Positions 3,271-31,368 of a stretch of 32,000 nt of DNA are shown here, piece after piece (within the stretch, counting starts at the first letter, position 1; the number at the start of each line of letters is the position of its first letter). The stretch lies in NCBI GenBank assembly GCA_047651235.1, contig CP178758.1, positions 3,540,001 through 3,572,000 of the forward strand. The letters are read 5' to 3'. The notes beneath the pieces are model-generated. The model did not search any database and was not told the origin of the DNA. It saw only the letters and a program-made list of their open reading frames with translations. This DNA is from Candidatus Electrothrix yaqonensis (GTDB lineage: Bacteria > Desulfobacterota > Desulfobulbia > Desulfobulbales > Desulfobulbaceae). The translations under genes and the position numbers were made by a program.

Positions 3271-3650
3271 GTCGTTTGCGTCTGTGCTGATTGCTGAGTC
3301 TCCGCCTGCGGAGAAAATGGACAGGCTGTTTATTCAGGCCAGAATACCCCGGAATAGCCGGACCTGCAAGCTGAACCGGTTGTTCGACTGAGATCAGACT
3401 CAGGCTGCTCATTGCTTACGTTCGGACAGCTCTGAGCGCTGAATCTCCCGGCGCACAACCGGAGCAATCCGCGCTTTTTTATGCAGTGTGATATTCATAA
3501 TGAAAAACCGGGCAGTTTATGCTCTGATAAGAGAATGCTTATCCGTTCGCGCGCCTGAAACAAAGACTGGCTTTTCATGGGTATATTATCACACGGGACG
3601 CGACACGTAACTCCTGTTTTTTTCCTGAAAGGAGAGCTGAGGCGATCAGT

Positions 3651-4229
3651 ATGAAGAAAGATGCTCGGCAGATGGAGCAAAAGAACAGAGACAGCAGAGT
3701 AAGCCCCCCCGGATCGGGAATCTGGAAAATTGTGGATGATTCTGGCGAATTTCCGGAGCTCAGAGAATTTATTGAGAACGTCGCCGGGACAGAGCCTCGA
3801 CATCCTTCCCGAGAAGTGATCAATGAAAACCTGCTTGCAAAATTTTCCTTTCCTCCTCTTCATGCCCCGAATCTGAGGCGACTCAAGGGACAGAAGCGGC
3901 AGAGCGAAGATGAAGATATTTTTCCGCAGTCTGCCGCAGCTGAGCTGCCAACACAGAAACAACCGGCAGGGAAGTATCTGCGAATTTTTCTGTTTGTTTT
4001 CCTGCTGATTTTTCTGCTCGGTCTTCTTGCATGGAATATAGCTTTTCTGGGCTGGCAGCCGCCATCGGGAAAAGTGGTGGAGTCTGGTACGGAAAATTCT
4101 TCAGAGGTTGTCATGTCGCAAAAAAACGACATACTCAGTCCGGGAACCGTTGCCGTCCGGCTCATCCGGTTGCCCAACCCGGCATGGTCTTGCAGGCGCT
4201 CTGTTTTTCCTGACCTGACTCACTCCTGA
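3651..4229 (+). CDS. Hypothetical single-pass membrane protein
   Basis: 192-aa ORF with one clear TM helix (YLRIFLFVFLLIFLLGLLAWNIAFLGW). The RBS is poorly placed and no family was recognised. Confidence 0.3.
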   Translation: MKKDARQMEQKNRDSRVSPPGSGIWKIVDDSGEFPELREFIENVAGTEPRHPSREVINENLLAKFSFPPLHAPNLRRLKGQKRQSEDEDIFPQSAAAELPTQKQPAGKYLRIFLFVFLLIFLLGLLAWNIAFLGWQPPSGKVVESGTENSSEVVMSQKNDILSPGTVAVRLIRLPNPAWSCRRSVFPDLTHS

Positions 4230-4416
4230 ATTCGGGCACAGCGGAAGCCGAGAGAGACGTTACGGTGGACAGGCTCATGAACAAGTGCAGAAGGGCAATA
4301 TTACCAGTGAGGTTAAATAGGTCGGAGTGTTTTCCTCACATTGAATTTAAATTACTTGCTGTCGATAATTGACAAACTGTTTATAACGGTATAAAAAAGA
4401 TAGGCTTGATTTATTT

Positions 4417-4504
4417 GCCCGGATGGCGGAACTGGTAGACGCAAGGGACTTAAAATCCCTCGGTTCTTGTAACTGTGCGAGTTCGACTCTCGCTCCGGGC
4501 ACCA
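4417..4504 (+). tRNA. tRNA-Leu (anticodon UAA), type II with long variable arm, CCA encoded
   Basis: Acceptor GCCCGGA/TCCGGGC. Anticodon stem AGGGA/TCCCT with loop CTTAAAA. T arm GCGAG-TTCGACT-CTCGC. Long variable arm. Terminal ACCA. Confidence 0.93.
4448..4497 (+). repeat. Direct repeat 1 (attL-like): 3' half of tRNA-Leu
   Basis: 50 nt (ACTTAAAATCCC...CTCGCTCCG) repeated at 9216-9265 with one mismatch (C4487 vs T9255). Confidence 0.9.
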
Positions 4505-4512
4505 GAGATTTC

Positions 4513-4550
4513 AAGGGGTTACAGTTTATTAACTGTAACCCCTTTTTCTT
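4513..4550 (+). terminator. Rho-independent terminator after tRNA-Leu
   Basis: GGGGTTACAG (4515-4524) pairs with CTGTAACCCC (4533-4542), followed by TTTTTCTTT. Confidence 0.8.
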
Positions 4551-4784
4551 TGCATACCCTCTGTGCGTACTTTCAGTGTAATTGTGTCGGGAAAAACCCT
4601 TCTTTTTTCGAGTACGTCTGTCCTTCTTTACCTGTATAGTTTTCCATGACAAAGCAGAATTCTTGTCATATACTGTGAATCTGCCGAATATAAGCAAGGA
4701 AATAAAACCGTTCCCTGCTAGCCCTGTTAAGAATGTGTAGACTCAGAACTGTTCCTTCATACAACTGCCGCAAAGGTTATCGAA

Positions 4785-7577
4785 ATGAAAAAATCTATCC
4801 CTGTTGCCTTGATTATTAGCTTAATCACACAGCTTTTTGTTTTTCAAACCAACGCATTAAGCAGCTCGTTATTACTACAACTTCCCCCTATCTTGGCAGC
4901 ATCTCATCGTAGCGGTTCATCGTCTTCTGTGGTCAATGATAATGTAATTATTATCGGTGAAAATAGTGCTGCTGACATCATTAGTACGAGCCCGAATACA
5001 GGAATAAATGGTGAAATAGCGGTTTTGGTTTCAGGCGAGACGGCAACTATATTAGAAAATGGATATATTTTTTCTCTATTACCAGGAGCTGATAATCGTT
5101 TCCCATTTGGAATAACGGGAGAAATAGTAGGATTACTGGACAATGACCAAGGGCGAAAGATTGTTATTCTGCAAAATTCATCATATGCGGATGTGATCAA
5201 AGAGGCACATGTTGATCTCGATAATATAACATTAGATGCAAGTAACTTTGTTGGCGTTATTGCGCCGTCAGCGGTTCAGTCTGCATCTGAGGCACCTGTA
5301 GCAATGGCAGCAAAAAATGTATCAGGGGGAAATTTCTATTCATTCAGAAACGGTGCTGTTGTCGTAGGAGCCTCTAATGAAAAAATGAAAATAAATTCGA
5401 CTGTAGAGGATGCTGATATAAAACTTGATGATGTATCATTGAACATGAAAATTGATCTTGCTGAAATGGGAGTTGATGCGAGTAAAATGTTCCCAATTGA
5501 TGCTGAAACTTCTGTTGGTTTTGTAGTCTCAGGTTCGCTTAAAAACATTAATATATCCCAAAAAATGACTTTCAATACAAATATAGATGTCGATTCTCCT
5601 GTCGATCTTATATTTGATGCCAATATTGATAGTGAATTGGAAGCTGATGTAAAATTCAATGGTAAAGGGGCTGTGAAATTCGGCTATTTCTCACAAGCAT
5701 GGAAGGAAGTTGAAGATCTTTCCTTTTCAAAGTTAACAATTACAGGATTGTCATCAAGTGACAAGACTGGAAAATTTCCTCTTGTCGGTTTAGTATGGTC
5801 TATTCCGTGCCCAGAAGGGTGTCTTATGACAACTGGTAAGACTCAAACACCGCTGAGATTGGCTAAGGAGTTAGGCATTATTATTTGGGTTTCTTTAAGG
5901 CTTGATGGTGAATTTTCAATTGATGGGGCTCTGAAATTTGCGCATATAAATCCAGCAAAATTATCGCTTGGTATAGGTGGAACTATCCCGGATAGTGATT
6001 TTTATATAAACTCGTCATTGGAACGAATCAACAATGCAGATCGATTGTTAGAATTGATGCAGTTGGATGGTACCTTTAATGCAAATTCAAATATTGGAAT
6101 CGCTATAGATGCAGATATTTTTATAGGTACTATACGTATCGCGAATGCTGGAATTGATTTGGTTGCTCGCCCAGAGATACAGGTGACAGGAAACATAGGT
6201 TATGGAACTGATACTCTTGACTCGCTGTGGAGCTGGAATGGAAATGCTTGTTTTAGAAGCACCATAGGCGCCGGGGCCATATTGCGCGGTGCTGTAAAAT
6301 TTGGCTTTGAGATTGATGCTACCTCTTGGTTAACTATATCTGATGAATATGAATATCGAACTCAGATTCCCAAAGAGGAGGATATGAGTAAATCAGGTTG
6401 GCATGGAGCTTGGTATACTGTCGTAGGAGAGGATATCTGTACGGCAAACCCGGCAATTACGCAGACTCCGATGTCTGGTCCTCCGGGTACAACATTTACT
6501 CAATCAGGAATAGGCTTTACACCTGAAAGTACGGGCGTAATGTATATACGTAAACCTGATGGCACTGAATATGATCCCGTACTGTGCCCAATGGACGAAT
6601 GGGGAAATTTCAGTACCGATTACATTGCTCCTTCTGACAAAGCCCCTGGTAATTATACATGGAGGGTTATTGACGGACCTACCGGTGTTTCGAGCAACGA
6701 GGTCACCTACATCATTGAAGGAACAGAAGTAGACCCCACGATTGCTCAGACACCTATGTCCGGTCCTCCGGGAACAACGTTTACCCAATGGGGCACGGGC
6801 TTCACGCCCAATAGTACAGGCACGATGCATTTTCAGAAGCCGGATGGTACTGAATACGAGCCTCTCCAACAGGTGATGGACGACACAGGTCATTTTGAGA
6901 TTCCCTACCCTTCACCGACTGACAAAGAACCCGGAAATTATACCTGGTGGGTTATCGACGGCCCGACTGGTATTTCAAGCAATCAGGTCACATACACTAT
7001 TCAATCCCCGGAGGTCAATCCTACAATTGCCCAAACGCCAATGTCTGCCCCGGCAGGGACGACATTTGCTCAATGGGGAACGGGCTTCACTCCCAACAGC
7101 ACAGGCACGATGCATTTTCGGAAGCCGGATGGAACAGAATATCCGACCAAACAACAGGCTATGGATAGCACAGGACATTTTGACATTCCTTATCCTTCAC
7201 CCGTAGATAAAGAGCCTGGAAATTATACATGGTGGGTTATCGATGGCCCGACTGGTATTTCAAGCAATCAGGTCACATACACTATTCAATCCCCGGAGGT
7301 CAATCCTACAATTGCCCAAACGCCAATGTCTGCTCCGGCAGGAACAACGTTTGCTCAATGGGGTACAGGCTTCACACCTAACAGTACTGGAACAATGCAT
7401 TTCCGAAAACCGGATGGCACTGAATATGAACCTCTTCAGCAGGTGATGGACGGTATAGGACACTTTGATATTTCATATCCGTCACCGACCAATAAAGAAC
7501 CTGGAAATTATACGTGGTGGGTTATCGACGGCCCGACTGGTATTTCAAGTAACCAAGTGACATACACTATAGAATAG
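4785..7577 (+). CDS. Secreted large repeat protein: N-terminal signal peptide, ~550-aa unique region, four 95-aa tandem repeats
   Basis: 930-aa ORF. Signal-peptide-like N-terminus MKKSIPVALIISLITQLFVFQTNALS. The C-terminal half is 4 copies of NP(A/T)I(T/A)QTPMS.P.GTTF.Q.G.GFTP.STG.M...KPDGTEY...PGNYTW.VIDGPTG.SSN.VTY.I. AT-rich relative to flanks. Confidence 0.85.
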   Translation: MKKSIPVALIISLITQLFVFQTNALSSSLLLQLPPILAASHRSGSSSSVVNDNVIIIGENSAADIISTSPNTGINGEIAVLVSGETATILENGYIFSLLPGADNRFPFGITGEIVGLLDNDQGRKIVILQNSSYADVIKEAHVDLDNITLDASNFVGVIAPSAVQSASEAPVAMAAKNVSGGNFYSFRNGAVVVGASNEKMKINSTVEDADIKLDDVSLNMKIDLAEMGVDASKMFPIDAETSVGFVVSGSLKNINISQKMTFNTNIDVDSPVDLIFDANIDSELEADVKFNGKGAVKFGYFSQAWKEVEDLSFSKLTITGLSSSDKTGKFPLVGLVWSIPCPEGCLMTTGKTQTPLRLAKELGIIIWVSLRLDGEFSIDGALKFAHINPAKLSLGIGGTIPDSDFYINSSLERINNADRLLELMQLDGTFNANSNIGIAIDADIFIGTIRIANAGIDLVARPEIQVTGNIGYGTDTLDSLWSWNGNACFRSTIGAGAILRGAVKFGFEIDATSWLTISDEYEYRTQIPKEEDMSKSGWHGAWYTVVGEDICTANPAITQTPMSGPPGTTFTQSGIGFTPESTGVMYIRKPDGTEYDPVLCPMDEWGNFSTDYIAPSDKAPGNYTWRVIDGPTGVSSNEVTYIIEGTEVDPTIAQTPMSGPPGTTFTQWGTGFTPNSTGTMHFQKPDGTEYEPLQQVMDDTGHFEIPYPSPTDKEPGNYTWWVIDGPTGISSNQVTYTIQSPEVNPTIAQTPMSAPAGTTFAQWGTGFTPNSTGTMHFRKPDGTEYPTKQQAMDSTGHFDIPYPSPVDKEPGNYTWWVIDGPTGISSNQVTYTIQSPEVNPTIAQTPMSAPAGTTFAQWGTGFTPNSTGTMHFRKPDGTEYEPLQQVMDGIGHFDISYPSPTNKEPGNYTWWVIDGPTGISSNQVTYTIE
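6447..7574 (+). repeat. Four in-frame 285-nt tandem repeats inside the secreted protein gene
   Basis: Units start at 6447, 6732, 7017 and 7302. Units 3 and 4 are nearly identical at the nucleotide level. Confidence 0.9.
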
Positions 7578-7703
7578 CAAGTATTTCGGTATGACTCACC
7601 ATCATGCAGAAGGGATAATTGATAACCTATATACAGCACGATACAATAATCATACTGAAACAACTGCATTCCTACAATCCTGAGCAACAAGCTATTCCCC
7701 ATT

Positions 7704-8324
7704 ATGCAACAGCTCAACGCCGCCACACTCGCTGAATTCATCCTGACTTCTTACCCTGATAAGAATATCACTCCGATGAAATTGCAGAAACTTGCGTATT
7801 ACGCAAAGGTATGGTCACTTGTTGCGGGCAGGCCCTGTACTGATGCTCTGTTCAAACGATGGGATTACGGCCCGGTGAACCGGCCTATCTATAACACCTA
7901 TAGGGAGTTCAGCAAGCAGCCTATTCCAGCCCCTGCAAACCCTTCACAGCAGCACATAGCGGATGAAGATGCAGAGCTGTTGAAATTCATCCTTGATCAT
8001 TATGTGCATCATTCCGCTGTGGCCCTGAGTGCGATGACGCATAAAGAAACACCCTGGAAAGATACACCGCCCGATCAGGTTATTTCCGACCAGGTTATCT
8101 ATGATTACTATTCCACATTCTCCTTTGCAAAAAACTTTCAGGGGAAACCCTGGAAAGAAGGAACATACTACGTTTTGAAAACCAATTCCTGGTATTCATT
8201 CACAATGGATATGAGCGATGAAGAGGCGGAAACCTATGTATCATACCCCTCTTATGCGAACTATCTGGAGCGGCGGAAAAAATCCGATCTGTCGGTACAA
8301 CGCTTCATGCAAAAAATCTTCTGA
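7704..8324 (+). CDS. Panacea/DUF4065 (SocA-like) domain protein, putative antitoxin
   Basis: 206 aa. Hallmark stretch ITPMKLQKLAYYAKVWSLV...WDYGPVNRPIYNTYREF. It ends 5 nt before the Fic ORF. Confidence 0.75.
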   Translation: MQQLNAATLAEFILTSYPDKNITPMKLQKLAYYAKVWSLVAGRPCTDALFKRWDYGPVNRPIYNTYREFSKQPIPAPANPSQQHIADEDAELLKFILDHYVHHSAVALSAMTHKETPWKDTPPDQVISDQVIYDYYSTFSFAKNFQGKPWKEGTYYVLKTNSWYSFTMDMSDEEAETYVSYPSYANYLERRKKSDLSVQRFMQKIF

Positions 8325-8329
8325 TTCAC

Positions 8330-8946
8330 TTGTTTCACTCGCATGATGATAAACACGAAAGGGAATACCTTGCAGAGCTTATGCAACTTTTCCCTGTTTA
8401 TCCGCAGCTCCCTCTTGATGAGGCGGATGAACAAATTAAAGATTTCTGGAATAATTTAGCAAGTGCGGAAGAATTTGCCGAAGAGCTGAAAGAACTATCG
8501 AATCAAGCTGTTTATGCCTTCTTTCAGAAAATCCCGAAGGAACTCCATAAACAACTTTTTGGCGGTATCCTGAACAATGCCGGAGAGTATCGCAAAGCGA
8601 CTGATCCGAACAACGGAGAAGTATTCTTTGGCCCGTCAACCAATCAGTTTGCTGGAGCCGATCCGCTCATGATCGACAGTATGTTGCGGAAGAATATTTC
8701 CTCACTCACACTTTCTCCAGATGATCCGGTATATGTTGCCGCCAGATTTTACCAACGCTTCGTTTATTTTATATCCACCCCTTTAACGACGGAAACGGAC
8801 GGATATCCCGATTCATGGTTGAAGTCTACCTGATCTATCATCAGTACCGGATTGACTTTGAGCAGCTGAGAAAAGCAACACGGTGGCTGAAGCAACTGAA
8901 CTACTGCCACCGAAAATCCAATGTGCCGCTGGCCCTCATAGCCTGA
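8330..8946 (+). pseudogene. Fic/Doc-family protein (putative toxin), frameshifted immediately upstream of the catalytic motif
   Basis: The ORF from the TTG at 8330 runs to 8833. From about 8770-8773 the adjacent frame reads (Y)IHPFNDGNGRISRFMVEVYLIYHQYRIDFEQL... to TGA 8944-8946. This gives the canonical HxFx(D/E)GNGRxxR motif only after a 1-nt frame correction in the T-run GTTTATTTTATATCC. Confidence 0.8.
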
Positions 8947-17892: not shown

Positions 17893-17990
17893 TGGCGGAA
17901 GTGCATGGGAATCGAACCCACCTGCCGGACTGTTCACCCGGCACACCGGATTTGAAGTCCGGGAGGGCCACCAGTGCCCTTTCCACTTCC
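17893..17990 (-). tRNA. selC: tRNA-Sec (anticodon UCA), selenocysteine tRNA
   Basis: Minus strand reads GGAAGTGG...CACTTCCGCCA. Anticodon stem CCGGA/TCCGG with loop CTTCAAA (UCA). Long variable arm GCCGG...CCGGC. T loop GGTTCGATTCC. Length ~98 nt, typical of selC. Confidence 0.85.
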
Positions 17991-22292: not shown

Positions 22293-23291
22293 TCAGACAT
22301 CAAAAAGATCGAGGTCATCCAGCGGGCTTTTCACGCCGTGGCCTCCCTGCTGCAGAACATGGGTGTAGATCATGGTGGTGGCCACGTCCTGATGACCGAG
22401 CAGGGCCTGTACTGTCCGGATATCTGTTCCCCGCTGGAGAAGATGGGTGGCAAAACTGTGCCGGAAGGTATGCGCGCTGACTTTTTTATCCACCCCGGCC
22501 TTTTTTACAGCTGTTTTTATTGCCTTGTTGACGGAGGAGGGATCAAGATGATGCCTGCGGATGACTCCCGTCCTCGGATCCGTTGATATCTTTGCCGCCG
22601 GAAACACATACTGCCAGTGCCATTCCTTTGCCGCTCCGGGATATTTGCGCTCCAGCGCATACGGCAGGTAGACTTCACCATACCCCTGCGCCAGATCCCG
22701 CCCGTGGAGCAGCTTTACCCCTGCGAGATGATGCTGCAGAAACAGTGCCGCAGACTCGGGAAAAGTGGTTGCCCGGTCCTTATCCCCCTTGCCTGACCGG
22801 ACGGTGATCTCCTTGAGATCGAAATCAATATCATGCACCCGCAGCCGGAGCGCCTCGCTGATCCGCAGGCCGCTTCCGTACAGCAGCTTGACCACGAGTT
22901 GCGGCACTCCCCGCATCAAAGCAAGTACACGGCCGACCTCTTTGCGGCTCATCACCACGGGGATGTTTTTTTTCGGTCTTGCCCGGACGGCGTCGATCTT
23001 CCGGTCAAGCTGCTGCTGAAGTACCTTTCTGTAGAAAAAGACCAGCGCGTTCATGGCCTGATTCTGCGTTGACGGAGAAACATGTTCATGTACGGCAAGA
23101 TGGGTGAGAAAGGCTTCGATTTTCTGCTCTCCATTGCTCAGATCGCCCCGCGAGCGCATGTTGTGGAACATGATAAACCGTGTGATCCAGCCGCAATACG
23201 ACCGCTCCGTATGTATGGAATAATGCTGAAGCCGCATGGTTTCATGCACTTCATCCATTATTCTTCTTTCCCTTGAGTTTTCTCTTGACAT
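22293..23291 (-). CDS. intI: Integron integrase IntI (tyrosine recombinase with IntI-specific insertion)
   Basis: 332 aa. Box [13 protein letters not shown], box [14 protein letters not shown], catalytic Tyr in [15 protein letters not shown]. It also has the IntI-diagnostic extra segment [22 protein letters not shown]. It is divergent from an array of attC-bounded cassettes. Confidence 0.92.
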
Positions 23292-23480
23292 ATCTGAAAG
23301 ATGTGTTTAAAGACAAAAGAGGTTGCTTTGATAATAGATTATTCGGGAATATATTATCCGATAATAATAGAGAATTCAAGTTATCTGAGAAAATATACTG
23401 ATAAGTAGCTTGTCAGGTATTTTTCCCTGAGAATATCAGTTTTCGGTGACTATCAGGACTGATTCTCTGATAATCAATGG
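23292..23480 (+). other. attI region (between intI start and first G|TT crossover at 23480|23481)
   Basis: AT-rich, non-coding, abuts intI. It ends in ...CAATGG|TT, where the first repeated junction element begins. It contains TATCAG/CTGATA repeats. Confidence 0.6.
23410..23439 (+). promoter_or_regulatory. Candidate cassette-directed promoter (Pc-like)
   Basis: TTGTCA (23410-23415), 17-18 nt spacer, ATATCA/TATCAG (23433-23439). Weak -10. Confidence 0.3.
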
Positions 23481-23659
23481 TTCCAAAGGCGCGCCCCTTC
23501 GGGCCACGCCTTTGGAATGCCGAGTTGACCGTACCGGCCCAACATTTGATTCCTGCGGCGCTGCGCGCCTTCGGAACCAAACGTTGGACTCGAAATTTTC
23601 CCGCAATAATCAACCGCAAGCGGCCATTATACCAGGAAAATTCCGGTCAACTCGGCATT
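23481..23659 (+). repeat. Junction element copy A (179 nt) at attI|cassette 1
   Basis: TTCCAAAGGCGCGCCCCTTCGGGCC...CCGGTCAACTCGGCATT. Identical by eye to copies C and D. Starts right after the attI terminal G. Confidence 0.95.
23626..23634 (-). promoter_or_regulatory. Consensus extended -10 (TGGTATAAT) on the minus strand, present in all four junction elements
   Basis: The rc of ATTATACCA is TGGTATAAT. In copy A it points toward attI and intI. TTGACC lies upstream on that strand but only 13 nt away. Confidence 0.35.
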
Positions 23660-23761
23660 ATGTTCCTGTAACAAAGAAAGGAAGTGATGAATGTACACAT
23701 AAGGCGCATGAGCGACTTTTAACGGTACTTGTAGCAATAATTTTAAGTAAGGAGGCTGTGT

Positions 23762-24763
23762 ATGAAATTTGTAGAATTGAGTCTCGCGGTTTTGGCTGTA
23801 ATCGTTTTCGTTGGTACGTCCTTCGCTGGCAGTACGGAAATCAAAGAAATAAAACCGGGCATTGTTGTATCGCTACGTTCAACGAATTATCCCAAGAGAT
23901 ACGTGCGTCATCGCAATTACTTGGGCGAATTGACCGAAGTGAGCAGTGAACTCGACCGCAAGGATTCGTCTTTCATTATTCGCCCCGGCCTTGCTGGCGG
24001 AGACAGCGTCTCTTTCGAGTCGGTGAATTATCCGGGCTATTTTCTGCGCCACCAGAACTTCATGATCAAACTCAATGAGCGGAAAAACAAGGATCTGTAT
24101 CGCAAAGACGTCTCGTTTAACGTTCGGCCTGGTGTCAACGGCCAAGGGTTTTCCTTCGAGTCGGTAAATTATCCGGGGCACTTTCTGCGCCATTGCAGTT
24201 TTAAAATGTTTATAGACAATAACAAGCGCGGCAACAATAAATGTAACGCAGACGTTGCGGTCTATAAGGGAGATGTGAGTTTCTTTGTTGATCTCGCCAA
24301 TTATTCTGTTGTATCGTTACGTTCAACGAATTATCCCAAAAGATACGTGCGTCATCGTAATTACTTGGGCGAATTGACCGAAGTGAGCAGTGAACTCGAC
24401 CGTAAAGATTCGTCTTTCATTATTCGCCCCGGCCTTGCTGGCGGAGACAGCGTCTCTTTCGAGTCGGTGAATTATCCGGGCTATTTCCTGCGCCACCAGA
24501 ACTTCATGATCAAACTCAATGAGCGGAAAAACGAGGATCTGTATCGCAAAGACGCCTCGTTTAACATTCGGCCCGGTGTCAACGGCCAGGGGTTTTCCTT
24601 CGAGTCGGTAAATTATCCGGGACATTTTCTGCGCCATTGCAGTTTTAAAATGTTTATAGACAATAACAATCGCGGCAACAACAAATGTAACGCAGACGTC
24701 GCGGTCTATAAGGGGGATGTAAGTTTCTCGATTGATCTAGCCAACCATGCAAGTGTAAATTGA
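23762..24763 (+). CDS. Cassette 1: secreted tandem AbfB-like (beta-trefoil, arabinose-binding-type) lectin-like protein
   Basis: 333 aa. Strong RBS TAAGGAGG. Signal peptide MKFVELSLAVLAVIVFVGTSFAG. Two 148-aa copies containing repeated SFESVNYPG(Y/H)FLRH motifs, characteristic of AbfB-type carbohydrate-binding domains. Confidence 0.8.
   Translation: MKFVELSLAVLAVIVFVGTSFAGSTEIKEIKPGIVVSLRSTNYPKRYVRHRNYLGELTEVSSELDRKDSSFIIRPGLAGGDSVSFESVNYPGYFLRHQNFMIKLNERKNKDLYRKDVSFNVRPGVNGQGFSFESVNYPGHFLRHCSFKMFIDNNKRGNNKCNADVAVYKGDVSFFVDLANYSVVSLRSTNYPKRYVRHRNYLGELTEVSSELDRKDSSFIIRPGLAGGDSVSFESVNYPGYFLRHQNFMIKLNERKNEDLYRKDASFNIRPGVNGQGFSFESVNYPGHFLRHCSFKMFIDNNNRGNNKCNADVAVYKGDVSFSIDLANHASVN
23864..24751 (+). 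repeat. In-frame 444-nt tandem duplication inside the cassette 1 gene
   Basis: Unit 1 is 23864-24307 and unit 2 is 24308-24751. Highly similar, with differences mostly at third codon positions. Confidence 0.9.
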
Positions 24764-24830
24764 GTTTTTTTTCGCCTGTCCGGGTTGTGGTGCGGCTTCG
24801 GCACAGATATCTGAGCTTCAGATTTCGTTT

Positions 24831-24946
24831 CAATAACCAGTCGCTGCACACGACCCGCAAACAGCGGCGGAATTCGGAATTTAATTCAGGCTCCCGTGCC
24901 GTAACGGTCATCTCGGCGATGCGACGGCGGGCGGGTGAGCTTTATG
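24831..24946 (+). other. attC of cassette 1 (116 nt)
   Basis: R''-like CAATAAC (24831-24837). Imperfect inverted repeats CAGTCGCTGCACACGACCCGC / GCGGGCGGGTGAGCT with unpaired bases. Terminal G at 24946 followed by TT. Confidence 0.75.
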
Positions 24947-25125
24947 TTCCAAAGGCGCGCCCCTTCGGGCCACGCCTTTGGAATGCCGAGTTGACCGTAC
25001 CGGCCCAACATTTGATTCCTGCGGCGCTGCGCGCCTTCGGAACCAAACGTTGGACTCGAAATTTTCCTGGTATAATCAACCGCAAGCGGCCATTATACCA
25101 GGAAAATTACGGTCAACTCGGCATT
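24947..25125 (+). repeat. Junction element copy B (179 nt, 4 substitutions) at cassette 1|cassette 2
   Basis: Same sequence as copy A, except CCCGCAATAAT becomes CCTGGTATAAT (25066-25076) and ATTCCGG becomes ATTACGG (C to A at 25109). Confidence 0.95.
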
Positions 25126-25213
25126 ATACCTGAAAAATTCCGTTCAACTCGGCAATTAGGCGCAAGAAATCTTGCTTAATTTCACAACTTTTTTAATTCG
25201 GGAGGATGTCGGT

Positions 25214-28200
25214 ATGAAAAATTCTAAGGTGTACGAAATTAAAGGACGTTTAATAGATATAAAATCAAATCGCCCTCTACTTGGGCTACAGATTCGTGCT
25301 TATGACAAAGATATTATCTTTGATGATTGTCTTGGGAGTGACAAGACCAATGAACAAGGAGATTTTGAGATTTCTTTTTTTGAGCATGACTTTAAAGAAC
25401 CTTTTGAAGAGCAACCAGAAGTCTATGTGGTAATTTACGGACCAGACATGGAACAGTTGCATTGCACAAAACCAATTCGTCTGGAACCTGGTCAATATGA
25501 AGTCTATCTTAATATCCTCATTGATGCAGGTCCACTCCTTACCGACCCACGCGTTAGCGAAGTAATCCCGAGCATCGTGCTTCCAGGCACATTTGTTGAT
25601 ATTTACGGAGATAATTTTGGAGATATCTATAAGAATGTTATGGTTTCCATTGGTGGACGCGAAGCTGTCGTATTGAGTGTCAATCCTCAAAAAATTAAGA
25701 TAAGAATTCCAGCTGAACCCGGCTCTCTAAATCCACTGGTTATCTCTATTGCCGGGAAAACTATTGAACTCAACGATGTATTCACTGCGGACACTCAACC
25801 CGATGAAGGAACCGTAGGACATCTCGGTGCACCGACAACTTTTTCCGGTAGCGCTGAAGGAGGTGCCGGACTGGACAGCGTTGGTGAAAATCAACGTGTG
25901 TTAATCGTCATGTGTTATCCCAGTGATAAAAATCCAACCGATGGCGGAGAAACAGCCGCAGATGAAAGGCAAAGACAAATTGACACCTTTGAAAACCTCG
26001 TTAATCCTGGTTTTCGGCAAATGTCCTATGGATGCACCGATTTTGATTTTGACTATACCGATTGGCTGGCATTACCTGAAGATGATGATTTTTATTTCTG
26101 GCGCAACGCCGACATCGTTGCAGCACAGGATGACATTGATAACTTGCCAGCTGATGCCACTGAAGAAGAAATCGATGCAGCTAATGCAGCACTGGAAACT
26201 GCACAAAACGGCCAGAATCTGATGCAACGGGGTGTCGAACTTTATCACGATGCATTAAAAGCAGCACAAGATGGAGGAAGGAATCTGGCAGACTACAAAG
26301 GCATTATGCTTTGCATGGCAACAGACTGGCTGCGCGGTCAGGCATCAGGCACTTGGGACGAAGTCACCGATAGCGATGGTCATACCGTTACCCTTGCACC
26401 CAGCACCTACCTTTGGGTCATCGCATACAATGCACATTGGGGACGCCGAATCCATGAACTTTCACACGCTATCGCATCACCCGATCTTTATGGCAGAACC
26501 GGTTATATCTCCGATGGTTCTCGCTGGGACATGATGGGTAATCATAACCACATGCCACTATTCTCCGGTTATAACATGCTTGACCGCCTTGACTGGTATG
26601 ATAATCCCAACGTTCAATTCTTAGACTGGACCAGCACACCCCATCATGACCAAGTATATACCTTACGTGCACATGATGCATCGAAAGATACTCTGGCAAC
26701 CACCTATCACATCATCAAGATAGACATCTTTCCAGGTCTGACTTACTACGTCGAGGTTCGACAGGAACCGGATGCATTACCCGCAGACCTGGATACAACC
26801 AGCGATAGCCTGGCAGTACTTGCACCTGCGGCAGCCGCATCATCAGCCGATCCAACACAGATATTATTTGATACTAATATTGATTTCCCAGCGGCAGCAC
26901 CCGCACATAAAGGTGGTGTGATAGTAACAAAAGTCGTTGATGACGATAGCCAGCTCAATCAAAACTTTCGCTATATAACATTACTGTCACCCGAACTCAT
27001 GCAGGCCGGTGAAGAAGTTGTGGATGCAGCCCGGAGGCTAACCATTCGCGTCGAATCAAAAACCAACGACCGCCCGCTCACCTATCAAGTGCGTGTCAAA
27101 TGGGTTGAAGTTGCCACGGCAGACCCAAGTGGTCTGTTAAACCTTCGCGTACGCCCGTGGGATTCATCCTATCAAACCAATGATATTTGGGTTGACAGTG
27201 AGGCCAACGGTTGGGGTACCTATGAAACTGCACTGGAACCAGCAACCGGTAATCCGTTAGGTAATGGTGACCGACCTTGGGTTAACCATAGCAATCGGTT
27301 ATACACGCGTGTACATAATTTTGGTGTAGTTGAAGCGACGGATGTACAGGTAACATTTTATGTGAATAGTCCTCCTGCGGTTGGCGACAGTGGTACATGG
27401 GTACCCATGACTGTAAAGACCATTCCAAGCATTGCTCCCGGCAGTTCTGAAGCTATCTATACCCCATGGACTCCTGCTGAAGGAGAACATACCTGTCTCA
27501 AAGTTGCTGTCGAAACGCAACTGGGCGAAACGGATGTTAATGATAATAGTGCCCAGGAAAACGTTTTTAATTTTGACACGTCAGGTGCCAGTCCTCATGA
27601 GCCAATCCTGCTCGAAGTGAATTTGCAGAATCCAAAAAATGAATGGACCCATATACAAATGCATCCTCAGGGGATTCCCGCCGGCTGGGAAGTTACCGTT
27701 GAACACGGTTGGGTGTGGTTACCTCCGCTCGGCACTAAAAAAATGCAACTGGCATTATTCACCGATAAAGGTCGAGAAAGACCACTCACCCGTTACTTTA
27801 AAAACAAGGATGATAACAAAAGAATACCCAATGAACTTAAATTCAAATTGGAAGGCGCAACCTATACATGGTACGGCAAGGGTAAGAATGTCCACGGCCA
27901 AGCAGAGCACCTTGCGTCAACCGGTGGCATATCAATAAATGCCCGTGCCCGTAGAAAGGTAGATATTGCACTGAAAATTGATCGCGAAGTGGCGAAAGTC
28001 GGCATTCTCCGCGTTCAAGGTGCGGTCGAGCCAGAACTGGGCGATGTTCAGATTACACTGGAAATTGCTCATGAAAAAGGCCGACACAAAGTGGTTCAAT
28101 TGAAAACAAACCAGAACGGTCGATTTGACTATGACTCTGGTCGATACGAACACTACCTAACCCCAGGACTCTATAGCATACAGGCATTTACTATTAACGA

Positions 28201-28267
28201 CCCAGTAGTAGCCGATACAAAATCGGAAATTGTTAGCGTGGAACTAGAGAGAGTCATTATAAGATGA
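25214..28267 (+). CDS. Cassette 2: large M6/InhA-like zinc metallopeptidase-domain protein with IPT/TIG-like and CARDB-like domains
   Basis: Open from 25172; the likely start is ATG 25214 (RBS GGGAGGA 7 nt upstream), giving ~1017 aa. HExxH with downstream PDLY (RIHELSHAIASPDLYG). IPT/TIG-like segment (VSEVIPSIVLPGTFVDIYGDNFG...). CARDB-like segment (NFGVVEATDVQVTFYVN...DVNDNSAQENV). No obvious signal peptide. Confidence 0.75.
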   Translation: MKNSKVYEIKGRLIDIKSNRPLLGLQIRAYDKDIIFDDCLGSDKTNEQGDFEISFFEHDFKEPFEEQPEVYVVIYGPDMEQLHCTKPIRLEPGQYEVYLNILIDAGPLLTDPRVSEVIPSIVLPGTFVDIYGDNFGDIYKNVMVSIGGREAVVLSVNPQKIKIRIPAEPGSLNPLVISIAGKTIELNDVFTADTQPDEGTVGHLGAPTTFSGSAEGGAGLDSVGENQRVLIVMCYPSDKNPTDGGETAADERQRQIDTFENLVNPGFRQMSYGCTDFDFDYTDWLALPEDDDFYFWRNADIVAAQDDIDNLPADATEEEIDAANAALETAQNGQNLMQRGVELYHDALKAAQDGGRNLADYKGIMLCMATDWLRGQASGTWDEVTDSDGHTVTLAPSTYLWVIAYNAHWGRRIHELSHAIASPDLYGRTGYISDGSRWDMMGNHNHMPLFSGYNMLDRLDWYDNPNVQFLDWTSTPHHDQVYTLRAHDASKDTLATTYHIIKIDIFPGLTYYVEVRQEPDALPADLDTTSDSLAVLAPAAAASSADPTQILFDTNIDFPAAAPAHKGGVIVTKVVDDDSQLNQNFRYITLLSPELMQAGEEVVDAARRLTIRVESKTNDRPLTYQVRVKWVEVATADPSGLLNLRVRPWDSSYQTNDIWVDSEANGWGTYETALEPATGNPLGNGDRPWVNHSNRLYTRVHNFGVVEATDVQVTFYVNSPPAVGDSGTWVPMTVKTIPSIAPGSSEAIYTPWTPAEGEHTCLKVAVETQLGETDVNDNSAQENVFNFDTSGASPHEPILLEVNLQNPKNEWTHIQMHPQGIPAGWEVTVEHGWVWLPPLGTKKMQLALFTDKGRERPLTRYFKNKDDNKRIPNELKFKLEGATYTWYGKGKNVHGQAEHLASTGGISINARARRKVDIALKIDREVAKVGILRVQGAVEPELGDVQITLEIAHEKGRHKVVQLKTNQNGRFDYDSGRYEHYLTPGLYSIQAFTINDPVVADTKSEIVSVELERVIIR

Positions 28268-28299
28268 TCCACAGGATCAGGCATAGTTTAAAGTTTTGT

Positions 28300-28415
28300 G
28301 TATAACCAGCCGCTGCACCCGACCCGCAAGCACGCGCGTTTTTTTGAAGTTAATTCAGGCTCCCGGCCCGCTTCAGTCATCGCGGCGATGCGGCGGCGGG
28401 CGGGTGAGCTTGTTG
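28300..28415 (+). other. attC of cassette 2 (116 nt), paralogous to the attC of cassette 1
   Basis: R'' GTATAAC (28300-28306) is the exact reverse complement of G+TTATAC at the cassette start (25124-25129). Shares CAG(Y)CGCTGCAC(M)CGACCCGC...TTAATTCAGGCTCCCG...GGCGGGCGGGTGAGCTT with 24831-24946. Terminal G at 28415. Confidence 0.8.
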
Positions 28416-28594
28416 TTCCAAAGGCGCGCCCCTTCGGGCCACGCCTTTGGAATGCCGAGTTGACCGTACCGGCCCAACATTTGATTCCTGCGGCGCTGCG
28501 CGCCTTCGGAACCAAACGTTGGACTCGAAATTTTCCCGCAATAATCAACCGCAAGCGGCCATTATACCAGGAAAATTCCGGTCAACTCGGCATT
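28416..28594 (+). repeat. Junction element copy C (179 nt) at cassette 2|cassette 3
   Basis: Identical by eye to copies A and D. Confidence 0.95.
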
Positions 28595-28687
28595 AGCTGT
28601 AAAATTAAGTTCTAAAAACACACATTAGTATCAACTGGAAATTACCTATGTGTGTTTTCTTTAACGTATCAACCAAGGAGAATGGCC

Positions 28688-31036
28688 ATGACTGATAACA
28701 ATTCTCATGAACACAATGAAGTTGTACCCCACCGCATAATTCTACAAGTTAGCGAACGAATTAAAAGCGAGGATCCGAAACAGATTGTCAAGTTGATGAT
28801 GAGCGACAAACTAGGCCCATGGTCAAGGCTCATCAAGGATTTTCCAGAGTTGAAAGTGCGGACACGTTGGCGAGCCAAAAAATCAGGTGAAATTAGAGAG
28901 CTAATCGCCAAGGCGCGAGAACTTGATCCAAACTATCAGCCTGGACCAATCCTGAAGTACTTGGAGGTCGTATGCCCGAATGAGTATGATGTTGATAAAG
29001 TGCTGGAGTCGCTTATGGTGTGGGCGACAATTCACACAGCTTGGGTAGCCCCTGAACCACAAGCACCACCGGTGGTAACTCCAGCTGATGATCCCCGTTC
29101 ACCCAATCAGGGGTATCTTGATCCTGCACCCGATGGTATCGATGCGGAATTTGCCTGGACCATTCCTGGTGGCGATGGTGCCAATCAGAGCTTTGTCGAT
29201 ATTGAATGGGGATGGACACTCAACCATGAAGATCTTACAGCACACAGCATTACCCTTCTCTCCGGATTAAACAATGGTTATGAGGGACATGGAACCGCTG
29301 TTTTGGGTGAAGTCGCCGCAGTGGACAATACAGTTGGCTGTGTCGGAATTACACCGGAGCTTGATTCAGTGAGCGTAATCGGTCAATGGCGCACTGCAAC
29401 AAATTATGACATTGCTGATGCCATACTGGATGCCTGTGACCGCATGGATTTTGGTGAAGTTTTACTCCTTGAGGCGCACAGTGATTACAACGGATTTCGT
29501 CTTGTTCCTGTTGAGGCCCATGATGACACCTTTGAGATGATCCGCCTAGCCACTGCATTGGGTATTATCGTGGTGGAGGCTGGTGGAAATGGCGGTGAAG
29601 ACCTAGATCTTGTAACCAATCCTGCCGGCGATAACTTTTTTGATCCTTCAGACGCCTCTTTTCGTGACTCCGGTGCAATTATCGTCGGTGCTGCATCCTC
29701 AGCCGCACCCCATACACGTATGGGATTCAGTAGCCATGGTGCACGTATCGATTGCTATGGCTGGGGTCAGAATGTGAATTCAACCGGAGATGGTTGGACT
29801 GGCACCTCAACCACTGTCTACACGGGGACATTCAGTGGTACTTCCAGCGCTTCTCCCATCATTGCAGGTGCTGCACTTTCCGTTCAGGGCGTTGCTGAGG
29901 CGGGATTTGGGTTACGTTTTTCACCGATGCAGATGCGGGAAATACTGACCAATCCGGCGACATCCACAGCATCAAACGATCCTGCGGTTGATCGTATTGG
30001 TGTAATGCCAAACCTACGAGCTATCATAGAGGATGGCGAGATCAATCTGAGGCCAGATGTGTATATACGTGACTACATCGGTGATGATGGTGATGCGCAT
30101 AGTAGCAGTATTTCGGCTAGCCCTGATGTCATACTCGTTCCTGCAACGGTTGGTGATCCCAATGCAGCCTTTGGTCACGGTAGCGGCACAGAGAACGACA
30201 ATACTCTGGGCCATGAGGCTACAGGTGGACAGGATAATTATATCTATGTCCGATGCCTTAACCGTGGTGGTGGAGACGGCACTAACACGACAGCTCGTAT
30301 ATTCTGGTCACCGCCTTCAACACTGGTTACTCCCGATCTGTGGACACCAGTCGGCAACGTAACATTGTCAAATGTACCGATTGGGGAAATCCTTACCGTG
30401 AGTGACGCCCTAACATGGCCAAACGCTGATATCCCAGCGCCCGGACACTATTGCTTTGTTGCGATCCTTGATCAGGCTCAGGACCCAGGTCCTACACCTG
30501 TCGATTTCCTCGATTGGGACAATTTCCGATCATTTATCCGGGAAAACAATAATGTGACATGGCGTAACTTTAATGTGGTACCTAGCTCACCACCACCAGG
30601 CAATAAAATGATACGTCAGCCATTCCTGATGGCCGGTGCTTTCGACAAAGCACGCAAAATGCGTCTAGAAGTCACAATGCGTCTGCCCAAAGATGCTAAG
30701 GTGCAATTGAGAATACCTGAACACCTTGCTGAATGTATCCAACGCATACGCTCACCATTTACGAAGCAGGAGCGCAAAAAACGCACTGTTCTTGTGCCCC
30801 TCAATCCACATGGGCGTACGAGATTTTGCGATGTCATTTTACCTGCAAAAGGAAGGTATGAGTTGGAGCTTCTGGTGAGCATTCCTAAAGAAGCAAGAAA
30901 CCACTCCTACCTTGGTTGGGCCGCTCAGTTTGAGGAAGAGCAAGAGCTTGGTCGCGTTACCTGGCAATTTGCTTCAGAAGATGTGTTTGAAAAACGTGAT
31001 GCCCACCTTAAACGGTTTATGAAACGTAAATGCTGA
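28688..31036 (+). CDS. Cassette 3: S8 (subtilisin-like) serine peptidase with extended N- and C-terminal regions
   Basis: Open from 28652. ATG 28688 is best spaced from RBS AAGGAG (ATG 28682 is also possible). Catalytic triad contexts FVDIEWGW (Asp), GHGTAVLGEV (His) and GTFSGTSSASPIIAGAA (Ser). No obvious signal peptide. Confidence 0.85.
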   Translation: MTDNNSHEHNEVVPHRIILQVSERIKSEDPKQIVKLMMSDKLGPWSRLIKDFPELKVRTRWRAKKSGEIRELIAKARELDPNYQPGPILKYLEVVCPNEYDVDKVLESLMVWATIHTAWVAPEPQAPPVVTPADDPRSPNQGYLDPAPDGIDAEFAWTIPGGDGANQSFVDIEWGWTLNHEDLTAHSITLLSGLNNGYEGHGTAVLGEVAAVDNTVGCVGITPELDSVSVIGQWRTATNYDIADAILDACDRMDFGEVLLLEAHSDYNGFRLVPVEAHDDTFEMIRLATALGIIVVEAGGNGGEDLDLVTNPAGDNFFDPSDASFRDSGAIIVGAASSAAPHTRMGFSSHGARIDCYGWGQNVNSTGDGWTGTSTTVYTGTFSGTSSASPIIAGAALSVQGVAEAGFGLRFSPMQMREILTNPATSTASNDPAVDRIGVMPNLRAIIEDGEINLRPDVYIRDYIGDDGDAHSSSISASPDVILVPATVGDPNAAFGHGSGTENDNTLGHEATGGQDNYIYVRCLNRGGGDGTNTTARIFWSPPSTLVTPDLWTPVGNVTLSNVPIGEILTVSDALTWPNADIPAPGHYCFVAILDQAQDPGPTPVDFLDWDNFRSFIRENNNVTWRNFNVVPSSPPPGNKMIRQPFLMAGAFDKARKMRLEVTMRLPKDAKVQLRIPEHLAECIQRIRSPFTKQERKKRTVLVPLNPHGRTRFCDVILPAKGRYELELLVSIPKEARNHSYLGWAAQFEEEQELGRVTWQFASEDVFEKRDAHLKRFMKRKC

Positions 31037-31038
31037 AA

Positions 31039-31120
31039 AGCTAACAAGGCAAATGCACTCGGACGCCAAAAAGCGCCGCTCCTTCGTCGCTCTGCTTTTT
31101 GGCGTCGGTGATTTGCGGCG
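31039..31120 (+). other. attC of cassette 3 (82 nt)
   Basis: R'' AGCTAAC (31039-31045) is the exact reverse complement of G+TTAGCT at the cassette start (28593-28598). Inverted repeats CAAATGCACTCGGACGCCAAAAAGC / GCTTTTTGGCGTCGGTGATTTG with unpaired bases. Terminal G at 31120. Confidence 0.85.
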
Positions 31121-31299
31121 TTCCAAAGGCGCGCCCCTTCGGGCCACGCCTTTGGAATGCCGAGTTGACCGTACCGGCCCAACATTTGATTCCTGCGGCG
31201 CTGCGCGCCTTCGGAACCAAACGTTGGACTCGAAATTTTCCCGCAATAATCAACCGCAAGCGGCCATTATACCAGGAAAATTCCGGTCAACTCGGCATT
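31121..31299 (+). repeat. Junction element copy D (179 nt) at cassette 3|cassette 4
   Basis: Identical by eye to copies A and C. Followed by TTGGGC. Confidence 0.95.
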
Positions 31300-31368
31300 G
31301 GGCGACGTGAAAAAGCACAGCATAGGAAGCTAAAGCTATCCACCTTAAAGTTATGGCAATATTAAAAT

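Follow-up and report, generated by a model that had tools for sequence, protein, structure and literature searches.

What kind of genetic unit can stand at every junction of an integron cassette array while encoding nothing? The question is raised by a 32,000-nucleotide stretch of Candidatus Electrothrix yaqonensis (contig CP178758.1, positions 3,540,001 to 3,572,000; hereafter the window), in which an integron integrase gene (intI) and its attI site adjoin an array of cassettes separated by copies of a short element (Table 1). The integrase gene beside these copies is intact, and its product scored 445.5 bits against TIGR02249 (cut-off 265), covered the full model (1-315) and was 100% identical to the integron integrase of the MAG Ca. 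Electrothrix sp. YB6.

Copies of the element in the window

An earlier inspection of the letters alone (the sequence-only reading) had described a 179-nt non-coding string in four direct copies. Repeat search and alignment placed them at 23481-23659, 24947-25125, 28416-28594 and 31121-31299, as had been claimed, with copies A, C and D identical in sequence and set between different flanks. Copy B differs from these at four positions (CCCGCAATAAT to CCTGGTATAAT and TTCCGG to TTACGG), and the four substitutions produce a perfect hairpin 3 and a new TGGTATAAT on the plus strand. An exact search with hairpin 1 returned four matches in the window against none expected, and the other 23 kb of the window held no homologue of the element.

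Directly to the left of 4/4 window copies lies the G that ends attI or a canonical attC, which agrees with the sequence-only reading, and TT with an RRRY-like tetramer lies to the right. Both sides of all four copies are the IntI crossover G|TT, and the copies are co-oriented with the array. The 179-nt repeat is real, but the TTRRRY hexamers that had been assigned to the following cassettes share the last two bases of that string, and thus the inserted unit is 177 nt (TTCC...GGCA), followed by the TT of the next cassette. With this change of length, a discrete non-coding unit is inserted precisely at the crossover, including the junction of attI and cassette 1, as had been proposed. The R'' boxes were found where they had been placed, and their complementarity to the cassette starts was correctly given as 5/7, 7/7 and 7/7 for cassettes 1, 2 and 3. 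For cassette 2 the score stands but its assignment is ambiguous, given that a 31-nt partial copy of the element's 3' end also opens with TTATAC.

The attC of cassette 1 is 91% similar to that of cassette 2, and the attC of cassette 3 forms a canonical bottom-strand hairpin with bulged bases (z=-3.5). The possibility that the element is part of a compound attC was rejected, as the upstream attCs are complete and mutually different, and one copy stands after attI.

Table 1. Features of the integron locus, with coordinates in the window
Feature	Position	Strand	Details
intI, integron integrase, 332 aa	22293..23291	-	TIGR02249 match; Pfam Phage_integrase and SAM_4
attI crossover-proximal box	23469..23480	+	GATAATCAATGG then TT; crossover between 23480 and 23481
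Element copy A, 177 nt	23481..23657	+	First cassette after attI; nhmmer E=2.5e-32
Hairpin 1 (copy A)	23481..23517	+	Cassette start TTCCAAAGGCG paired with CGCCTTTGGAA (holds R''-alpha)
Alpha module (copy A)	23512..23549	+	R''a TTGGAAT (23512-18), GCCGA, L''a GTTGACC (23524-30), linker, CCCAAC, ATTTG, A| (23549)
Beta module, canonical attC (copy A)	23550..23657	+	R''b TCGGAAC (23571-77), CAAAC, L''b GTT[G]GAC (23583-89)
Beta module, 3' part (copy A)	23593..23657	+	Hairpin 3 as VTS (23593-23643), L'b GGTCAAC (23645-51), TCGGC, A (23657) then TT
Cassette 1 ORF, AbfB-domain protein, 333 aa	23762..24763	+	
attC of cassette 1	24831..24946	+	R'' CAATAAC (24831-24837) ... L' GGTGAGC, TTTAT, G
Element copy B	24947..25123	+	Repeat search, alignment
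Partial copy of the element's 3' end, 31 nt	25124..25154	+	28/31 identical; begins at internal A|TTATACC position
Cassette 2 ORF, TIG/CARDB domains	25172..28267	+	Likely ATG start 25214
attC of cassette 2	28300..28415	+	R'' GTATAAC (28300-28306)
Element copy C	28416..28592	+	Identical to A
Cassette 3 ORF, subtilase S8	28652..31036	+	Likely ATG start 28682
attC of cassette 3	31039..31120	+	R'' AGCTAAC (31039-31045)
Element copy D	31121..31297	+	Identical to A; then TTGGGC and cassette 4
Cassette 4 ORF	from 31369	+	Continues beyond window edge

Anatomy and predicted folding of the element

The element has two parts, alpha and beta. Beta, the 3' 108 nt, comprises an R'' with AAC at its end, a spacer of 5 nt, an L'' with a single extra base, a VTS hairpin, an L', a 5-nt non-complementary spacer and an R' ([A/G]|TT), and by itself it gives an attC-like hairpin when the bottom strand is folded. 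Alpha, the 5' 69 nt, contributes one more arm of each kind (R''–spacer–L'' and L'–spacer–R'), and these are inverted copies (reverse complements) of the beta arms and pair with them perfectly in the MFE fold. Non-attC sequence amounts to 5-15 nt, and in copy A the sole 'cargo' is the 15-nt loop of hairpin 1, a loop that measures 1 to 75 nt in the family as a whole and whose stem (helix 6) covaries. The fold of copy A has z=-10.5 as bottom-strand DNA and z=-11.9 as RNA.

The first 11 nt of the element (TTCCAAAGGCG) are complementary to its R'', a match that would be expected of a circle closed at R'. Such a complementary start (11 nt with at most two mismatches) was present in 67/69 copies. In the linear array the element's R' retains only 3 bp of complementarity to R'', and excision may consequently be inefficient.

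Since the alpha arms are reverse complements of the beta arms, the four arms have two pairing modes in single-stranded DNA: (i) two attC-like hairpins, or (ii) a three-way junction of perfect duplexes, which is ~20 kcal/mol more stable in predicted folds. The beta spacers CAAAC and TCGGC cannot pair with one another, while in the long form alpha offers the perfect complement GCCGA, and in the most stable predicted fold alpha masks both the spacer bubble and the bulged base. These two unpaired features are reported to guide IntI and the choice of strand.

Relatives in other integrons

An iterated nhmmer search for the family converged, with at least 94 homologous copies on 63 contigs and hosts among Desulfobacterota, Terriglobia and Acidimicrobiia MAGs. 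More than one copy was carried by 21 contigs, with mixed orientation in 0/21, and the gap between copies on one contig had a median of 1.5 kb, or about one cassette. The regular interleaving pointed out by the sequence-only reading is therefore real but not unique to this genome, as one array (L023) holds six copies in 10 kb, the first of which adjoins attI, and many metagenome contigs hold 2-4. One element variant was found next to many different cassettes. Every copy found beyond the window sits in a cassette array, so that the pattern which the sequence-only reading had named as refuting, that of a generic REP or MITE repeat, was not encountered. No element match was obtained from plasmids by blastn, and two scans of viral contigs gave 0 matches. 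The exact closing-stem pattern GCCGAGTTGACCG-N95-125-CGGTCAACTCGGC had 0 matches in GTDB representative genomes and JGI metagenomes, because the stems covary, and no contig pair among 141 loci presented one junction both occupied by the element and free of it.

The boundaries seen in the window recur in the relatives. Hairpin 1 is present in 67/69 full-length relatives, and in these 67 copies the left base before TT is G in nearly all (A in 4), after an attC-type L'/spacer or an attI box. The right end reads [A/G]|TT, followed by cassette-start-like tetramers, and the element's own crossover base is A in 53/67 unique copies and G in 14/67 (ATT vs GTT). The R'' is GGGAAY-like and purine-rich and does not match the RYYYAAC consensus, and the AAT/ATT and AAC/GTT combinations covary in part. 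Upstream of intI, most related integrons carry the attI motif ..TGATAATCAATGG|TT, with either the element or the start of an ordinary cassette behind it; the slot after attI was held by an ordinary cassette in 45/53 related genome loci and by the element in 8/53. Some relatives are beta-only forms, which start precisely at the alpha|beta junction and were found directly after attI (L068, L086, L106) or after ordinary attCs (L087, L104/L115, L107).

The structure of the element is under selection. The share of paired cells was 93.9% versus 34-42% for slid controls, compensatory changes occurred at 23/37 pairs, and the observed values were reached by 0/500 shuffles. The metagenome sample was drawn with a hairpin 2 pattern, and the conservation of sequence in that hairpin is partly ascertainment. 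The layout AAC–5 nt–L'' (one bulge)–VTS–L'–5 nt–[A/G] is exact in 44/66 unique copies. The L-box pairs covary and are of four types (GTT[C]GAC/GTCAAC, GCT[C]GAG/CTCAGC, GCT[C]GAC/GTCAGC and GTT[C]GAG/CTCAAC), with the single bulge at the same position. Furthermore, the bottom strand was the more stable in 44/44 unique variants, by a mean of 8.1 kcal/mol (DNA parameters), and it is the same strand as in the neighbouring attCs; use of the bottom strand is the rule for attC sites (PMC5027507).

Nature and mobility of the element

The sequence-only reading had taken the repeat for an attC-targeting element foreign to the integron. This view was abandoned, as the ends and internal boxes instead mark a cassette that is little more than an attC. 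The element is most likely an integron cassette without a gene, pared down to the recombination site (a 'bare attC'), which is non-autonomous and would be moved and amplified by IntI. If the element is itself a cassette, the integrase is the obvious mobilising enzyme. IntI would act on the element's folded bottom strand and recombine it at G|TT with either attI or a further attC, which would place the element exactly at cassette junctions. Excision would take one strand and replication would restore the donor, so that each re-insertion at attI could add a copy, and element insertion alternating with cassette capture may then fill the first position and every junction. The element encodes nothing and would need IntI in trans; by analogy, it would be to the integron roughly what a MITE is to a transposon. 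Against the bare attC stands the A at its own crossover in 53/67 unique copies, where G is normally invariant. The purine-rich R box, the masking of the spacer bubble and bulged base by alpha, the short complementarity between R' and R'' in the linear array and the failure to find filled and empty versions of one junction also count against it. A purely selfish model does not account for a three-way junction that is strongly conserved from one phylum to another.

A more specific proposal, which is tentative and rather doubtful, casts the long form as a dedicated integron parasite, a double attC that is both self-masking and self-synapsing. In the folded bottom strand, alpha would pair with the beta L'-spacer arm and hairpin 1 would stack on that helix, and the result would be the duplex of a circular cassette, with both element boundaries at one point. 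If true, the element would spread by copy-and-paste to attI and every junction, and the attC upstream would have its outer R' bases replaced (TTRRRY to TTCC..). The excisability of neighbouring cassettes would be altered and the array locked or gated, with two hairpins versus a three-way junction acting as a DNA-level switch of recombination competence.

Gene-less cassettes are already known as a category. Those of Vibrionaceae superintegrons and oral Treponema resemble the element in having an attC without a protein gene and IntI crossovers as bounds; they can occupy the first position, and some have promoters on either strand (PMC11014356; PMC8876359). However, described gene-less cassettes measure 491-666 bp, of which 335-515 bp is non-attC sequence, against 177 nt and 5-15 nt for the element, which in addition is a conserved multi-copy family over many taxa, interleaved with cassettes and equipped with a second, inverted set of its attC arms. 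With canonical attCs, including long ones with a branched VTS (e.g., VCRs), the element shares the R''-5-L''...L'-5-R' layout, the bulged L base, the crossover before TT, non-complementary spacers (in the beta fold) and the bottom-strand bias. It differs from them in several respects: the crossover is ATT in ~80% of variants, R'' is purine-rich, the start is complementary to R'' over 11-14 bp rather than 7, and the extra alpha arms mask the unpaired features in the three-way junction. Furthermore, its sequence has been kept from phylum to phylum, whereas conservation among attCs normally extends to structure alone.

Among the alternatives to selfish spread, a regulatory module selected by the host or integron, such as a mobile promoter or insulator that drives the downstream cassette, or intI from the first position, is unlikely, though its function-driven spread would be compatible with mobilisation by IntI. 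Promoters in sense and antisense have been described in gene-less cassettes, and cassettes of this kind in first position have been proposed to raise intI expression (PMC11014356; PMC8876359). The element is first after attI in 8/53 related integrons, an antisense TGGTATAAT is present in all window copies and is directed at intI in copy A, and copy B gained a sense-strand TGGTATAAT 36 nt before cassette 2. However, most relatives have only weak -35/-10-like hexamers or none, the conserved positions are recombination boxes and stems, and attI-directed insertion equally predicts a first-position bias. A structured non-coding RNA gene (sRNA or cis-regulatory), transcribed in antisense to the cassettes (minus strand) and carried as mere cargo, would make the three-way junction an RNA structure, and integron-borne sRNA cassettes are documented (PMC8876359). 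The minus-strand RNA fold (-115.7 kcal/mol, z=-11.9), which is better than the plus-strand fold in 44/44 variants, the strong covariation and the minus-strand TGGTATAAT of 4/4 window copies, which is a perfect extended -10, all fit such a gene. It is nevertheless improbable, given that Rfam 15, which has no attC family, gave no match in or near the element at the gathering threshold or even at E<=1, a sigma-70 scan found no consensus promoter inside the element, and the -10-like box varies in relatives (GATAAC, GATAGC, TCTAAT). The attC boxes and their inverted copy fill nearly the whole element and leave a cargo of 5-15 nt, and the mutually exclusive pairing (beta L''/L' with bulge) also covaries, as predicted by an attC and not by a single RNA fold. 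A coding element was rejected as well: the absence of a consistent ORF, noted at the outset, was borne out by the relatives, with any one frame open in at most 16/38 family members, and stem substitutions are compensatory.

Mobile elements that target attC sites were also weighed. IS1111-attC insertion sequences (ISPa21, ISPst6, ISKpn4) likewise recur in arrays, at several attCs per array and in fixed orientation, but they are kb-sized, with a DEDD transposase and a seekRNA, and lie antisense near R'', whereas the element is gene-less, in sense orientation, and found at G|TT and attI. Group IIC-attC introns target folded attC bottom strands in arrays, but are ~2 kb retroelements with an IEP that lie antisense near the attC 5' end (PMC3001079), and Rfam found no intron domains in the element. 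The statement of the sequence-only reading that the repeat is neither of these was correct, as both insert antisense near R'' (PMC3001079). Very little weight is given to a MITE of an IS110/IS1111-attC insertion sequence that kept its ends and guide (seek/bridge) RNA, used a DEDD transposase in trans and had TT as core dinucleotide. Its ~177 nt resembles the size of a bridge/seek RNA, TT is present at both ends, IS1111 members find attC via a seekRNA (PMC11187229), and the element-rich array L023 has an IS110-family transposase twice. L023 thus holds the element and a genuine IS110/IS1111-family insertion sequence side by side, but the latter occupies the other (R'') position, adjoining GTTAGATGC/R'' and not G|TT, consistent with antisense insertion near the 5' (R'') end of attC (PMC3001079). 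The element's flanks have only G|TT in common and so offer no guide-complementary target, the element is also found at attI, which is not a folded attC, and its near-perfect helices have no internal guide loops of the bridge RNA kind. In addition, there is no IS110-family gene among the large annotated ORFs of the window. An IS200/IS605-type element (PATE) was dropped, as the sole shared target is the integrase crossover, including the double-stranded attI. MITEs and REP repeats resemble the element in being short, structured, non-coding and multi-copy, with the enzyme in trans; in contrast, the element appears to be mobilised by a tyrosine recombinase at a defined crossover, has no terminal inverted repeats or target duplication, and is confined to integron arrays. 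An assembly or repeat-collapse artefact, or a generic REP-like repeat, can practically be dismissed. A short-read Logan contig of the locus, the only contig found for it, does end within a few bases of the element start, which indicates that the repeat confuses assemblers. However, copy B has its four differences and a partial copy behind it, the flanks of every copy are unique and plausible as cassette ends, the window's other 23 kb are free of copies, and dozens of independent assemblies contain homologues that carry compensatory changes and lie without exception in arrays.

Integron cassettes are usually viewed as carriers of genes. The bare attC would mean that a recombination site alone can persist, diversify and multiply, to the extent that the element takes the attI-proximal slot in about 15% of one large environmental integron clade. 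It would also serve as a natural minimal substrate for asking what IntI requires, as an ATT crossover seems to be tolerated and the built-in complement should hide unpaired features that are thought essential for IntI. For genome and metagenome work, the element's repeats break short-read integron assemblies and will inflate the counts of 'empty' cassettes in metagenomic surveys. Sediment bacteria, cable bacteria among them, would have in the element a hidden regulator of their cassette arrays, provided that it supplies promoters or affects how neighbouring cassettes are excised.

The integron platform and its four repeat copies

The integron integrase gene (intI) of the window matches its model over the full length, and the enzyme is 100% identical to that of the MAG Candidatus Electrothrix sp. 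YB6, a cable bacterium. To its right, co-oriented ORFs are each followed by a canonical attC. The attCs of cassettes 1 and 2 are paralogues of ~91% identity (24833-24946 vs. 28302-28415), the genes of these cassettes are unrelated, and the attC of cassette 3 is related to neither. The ORF of cassette 1 carries an internal 444-nt tandem duplication (96% identical) of an AbfB-type domain (23863-24162, 24307-24606). A selenocysteine tRNA (74.7 bits; 17897-17990, minus strand) lies ~4 kb upstream of the platform, and the window also holds a long-arm tRNA (4417-4501, plus strand).

The sequence-only reading had proposed four direct copies of a 179-nt string, with A, C and D identical and B differing at four positions. 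Repeat search, exact-pattern search and four-way alignment confirmed the copies, and the alignment confirmed the differences; hairpin 1 of the element alone gave four exact-pattern matches in the window against none expected. All four copies start directly after the terminal G of attI or an attC, as claimed. The TTRRRY hexamers said to follow each copy are present, but they share the last TT of the string, which reduces the true unit to 177 nt (TTCC...GGCA), with the TT of the next cassette after it. The element is non-coding: no reading frame is conserved across relatives, in agreement with the earlier view that it has no consistent ORF. Rfam gave no match to the element at the gathering threshold or at E<=1.

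Features of the integron platform and anatomy of the element (alpha, 5' third; beta, 3' two-thirds; anatomical coordinates refer to copy A)
Feature	Position	Strand	Remark
Integron integrase gene	22293-23291	(-)	TIGR02249, 445 bits vs. cut-off 265
attI box	23469-23480		GATAATCAATGG; copy A begins right after its terminal G
Copy A, 179-nt string	23481-23659
Copy B, 179-nt string	24947-25125
Copy C, 179-nt string	28416-28594
Copy D, 179-nt string	31121-31299
attC of cassette 1	24831-24946		R''–5–L''...L'–5–G
attC of cassette 2	28300-28415		R''–5–L''...L'–5–G
attC of cassette 3	31039-31120		R''–5–L''...L'–5–G
alpha R''	23512-23518		TTGGAAT
alpha spacer	23519-23523		GCCGA
alpha L''	23524-23530		GTTGACC
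alpha short linker, then 3' boxes	to 23549|23550		CCCAAC–ATTTG–A|TT
beta module	23550-23657
beta R''	23571-23577		TCGGAAC
beta spacer	23578-23582		CAAAC
beta L''	23583-23589		GTT[G]GAC, one extra base
beta variable terminal structure	23593-23643		hairpin 3
beta L'	23645-23651		GGTCAAC
beta spacer	23652-23656		TCGGC, no pairing possible with CAAAC
beta crossover	23657|23658		A|TT

Directly after copy B come 31 nt that repeat part of the element's 3' end (25124-25154, 28/31 identical). They begin at the point that corresponds to an internal CCA|TTATACC in hairpin 3; this site is similar to an R-box (GTATAAT/ATTATAC in copy B) and to the A|TT crossover of the element itself. The partial copy could be what is left of a tandem pair after trimming at a secondary crossover. 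The TTATAC earlier matched 7/7 to the R'' box of cassette 2 is indeed there, but it is the start of the partial copy, so the match is ambiguous.

attC architecture and fold of the element

The element has the architecture of an attC and the strand bias of an attC. The exact beta layout was found in 44 of 66 unique copies, and in the covarying L boxes the bulge is retained (GTT[C]GAC/GTCAAC, GCT[C]GAG/CTCAGC, GCT[C]GAC/GTCAGC, GTT[C]GAG/CTCAAC). The minus (bottom) strand is the more stable with both RNA (-115.7 vs. -86.5 kcal/mol) and DNA parameters (-65.7 vs. -53.8 kcal/mol), and in 44/44 unique variants. The arms of alpha are the reverse complements of those of beta, so that alpha repeats beta's arms in inverted form; the minimum-energy fold is therefore a three-way junction built of perfect helices, and separate folding of alpha and beta is ~20 kcal/mol less stable. 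In the whole, hairpin 1 lies at the 5' end and the junction, made of hairpins 2 and 3 and a closing stem of 14-15 bp, comes after it; the element folds far better than shuffled sequence (z-scores -10 to -12). Alpha thereby masks the bulge and spacer bubble of beta, features reported as guides of strand choice (PMC5027507).

Structural selection acts on the element. Across an alignment of 38 distinct copies, standard pairs occupy 93.9% of cells compared with 34-42% when partners are slid, compensatory changes occur in 23 of 37 pairs, and none of 500 shuffles reached the observed values. The cassette opens with 11 nt that pair with R''; in the circular cassette this extends the R box. The only cargo is the hairpin 1 loop (1 to 75 nt). 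One subfamily carries ~75 nt there instead of 5-15 nt (L035:5934-6030, L070:4130-4222, L070:238-330, L052:3103-3196, L095, L117; L numbers denote related loci or contigs), of similar length in distant hosts.

Beta-only elements start exactly at the alpha|beta junction, either right after attI (L068, L086, L106) or after ordinary attCs (L087, L104/L115, L107). Other truncated forms start at an internal G|TT.

Distribution and boundaries

Exact-stem patterns returned no matches in public genomes or metagenomes; 80 integron loci were therefore collected via the integrase and searched with the element as query. The search yielded 17 homologues, spread over 10 loci, from Desulfobacterota, Terriglobia and Acidimicrobiia MAGs and the complete genome of Desulfopila sp. 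IMCC35008. Pooled with 59 metagenome contigs fetched with the hairpin 2 pattern, the collection holds 94 copies whose 3' end is complete, in 63 sequences. More than one copy occurs in 21 sequences, never in mixed orientation, at a median gap of 1.5 kb (about one cassette), and L023 is a 10-kb array with six copies. The three-way junction is conserved across phyla. The element is restricted to arrays, where it is multi-copy, and it is mobile between contexts. Just one other public contig encodes exactly the window integrase (L001; Logan SRR31704081, 5588 nt), and it stops 193 nt past the intI start, a few bases from where the element begins; the repeat interrupts short-read assemblies.

The integrase crossover delimits the element as a discrete unit. 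Hairpin 1 is present in 67/69 full-length copies, and in nearly all of these 67 a G precedes the initial TT, with an attC-type L'/spacer or the attI box ..ATAATCAATGG upstream. The right end reads [A/G]|TT, followed by tetramers like cassette starts. The crossover triplet, normally an invariant GTT (its conservation is noted in PMC11014356), is ATT in ~80% of variants.

The attI box is conserved within the integrase clade of the window intI. Among 53 genome loci with sufficient flank, the attI G|TT is directly followed by an ordinary cassette start in 45 and by the element in eight, which provides an empty-site comparison and reveals a marked bias towards the first position. In several metagenome contigs, too, a first-position copy lies immediately beside intI. 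Weak or partial matches right after attI in two further integrons (L044:165-238, L053:4-67) may be degenerate or contig-truncated first-position copies.

Relation to known systems and possible roles

The insertion site of both IS1111-attC elements and group IIC-attC introns lies near R'', and their orientation is antisense (PMC3001079). L023 contains two identical ~1.66-kb IS110/IS1111-family IS (approx. 3540-5210 and 6775-8445; PF01548 + PF02371 transposase), antisense to the cassettes and adjoining the attC R'' box, the classic IS1111-attC position. Element copies sit nearby at G|TT, so the two phenomena are distinct. The sequence-only reading was right that the element is a discrete unit and not a known attC-targeting mobile element; its view of the element as foreign to the integron system did not hold, as it resolves into attC parts with crossover ends. 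Gene-less cassettes are already known, some with promoters, and a first-position effect on intI has been proposed as possible (PMC11014356; PMC8876359). The published ones measure 491-666 bp and include hundreds of bases outside the attC, whereas the family seen here is a double-attC unit that is cargo-less, conserved and amplifying.

A sigma-70 scan found nothing inside the element. TGGTATAAT occurs on the antisense strand of all four window copies, directed at intI in copy A. In copy B, three of the four substitutions (25066-25071 and 25102) render hairpin 3 perfectly paired, and the same three yield this consensus extended -10 on the sense strand too, 36 nt before cassette 2. The family as a whole does not conserve this box; judged by these motifs, a promoter role in the window genome is possible.

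Mechanistically, IntI would recombine the folded bottom strand of the element with attI or an attC, and single-strand excision, resolved by replication, would let copies build up. Element insertions alternating with cassette captures would then place the element in the first position and at every junction. It is conceivable, though rather doubtful, that the element is a self-masking parasitic attC that gates the dynamics of the array.
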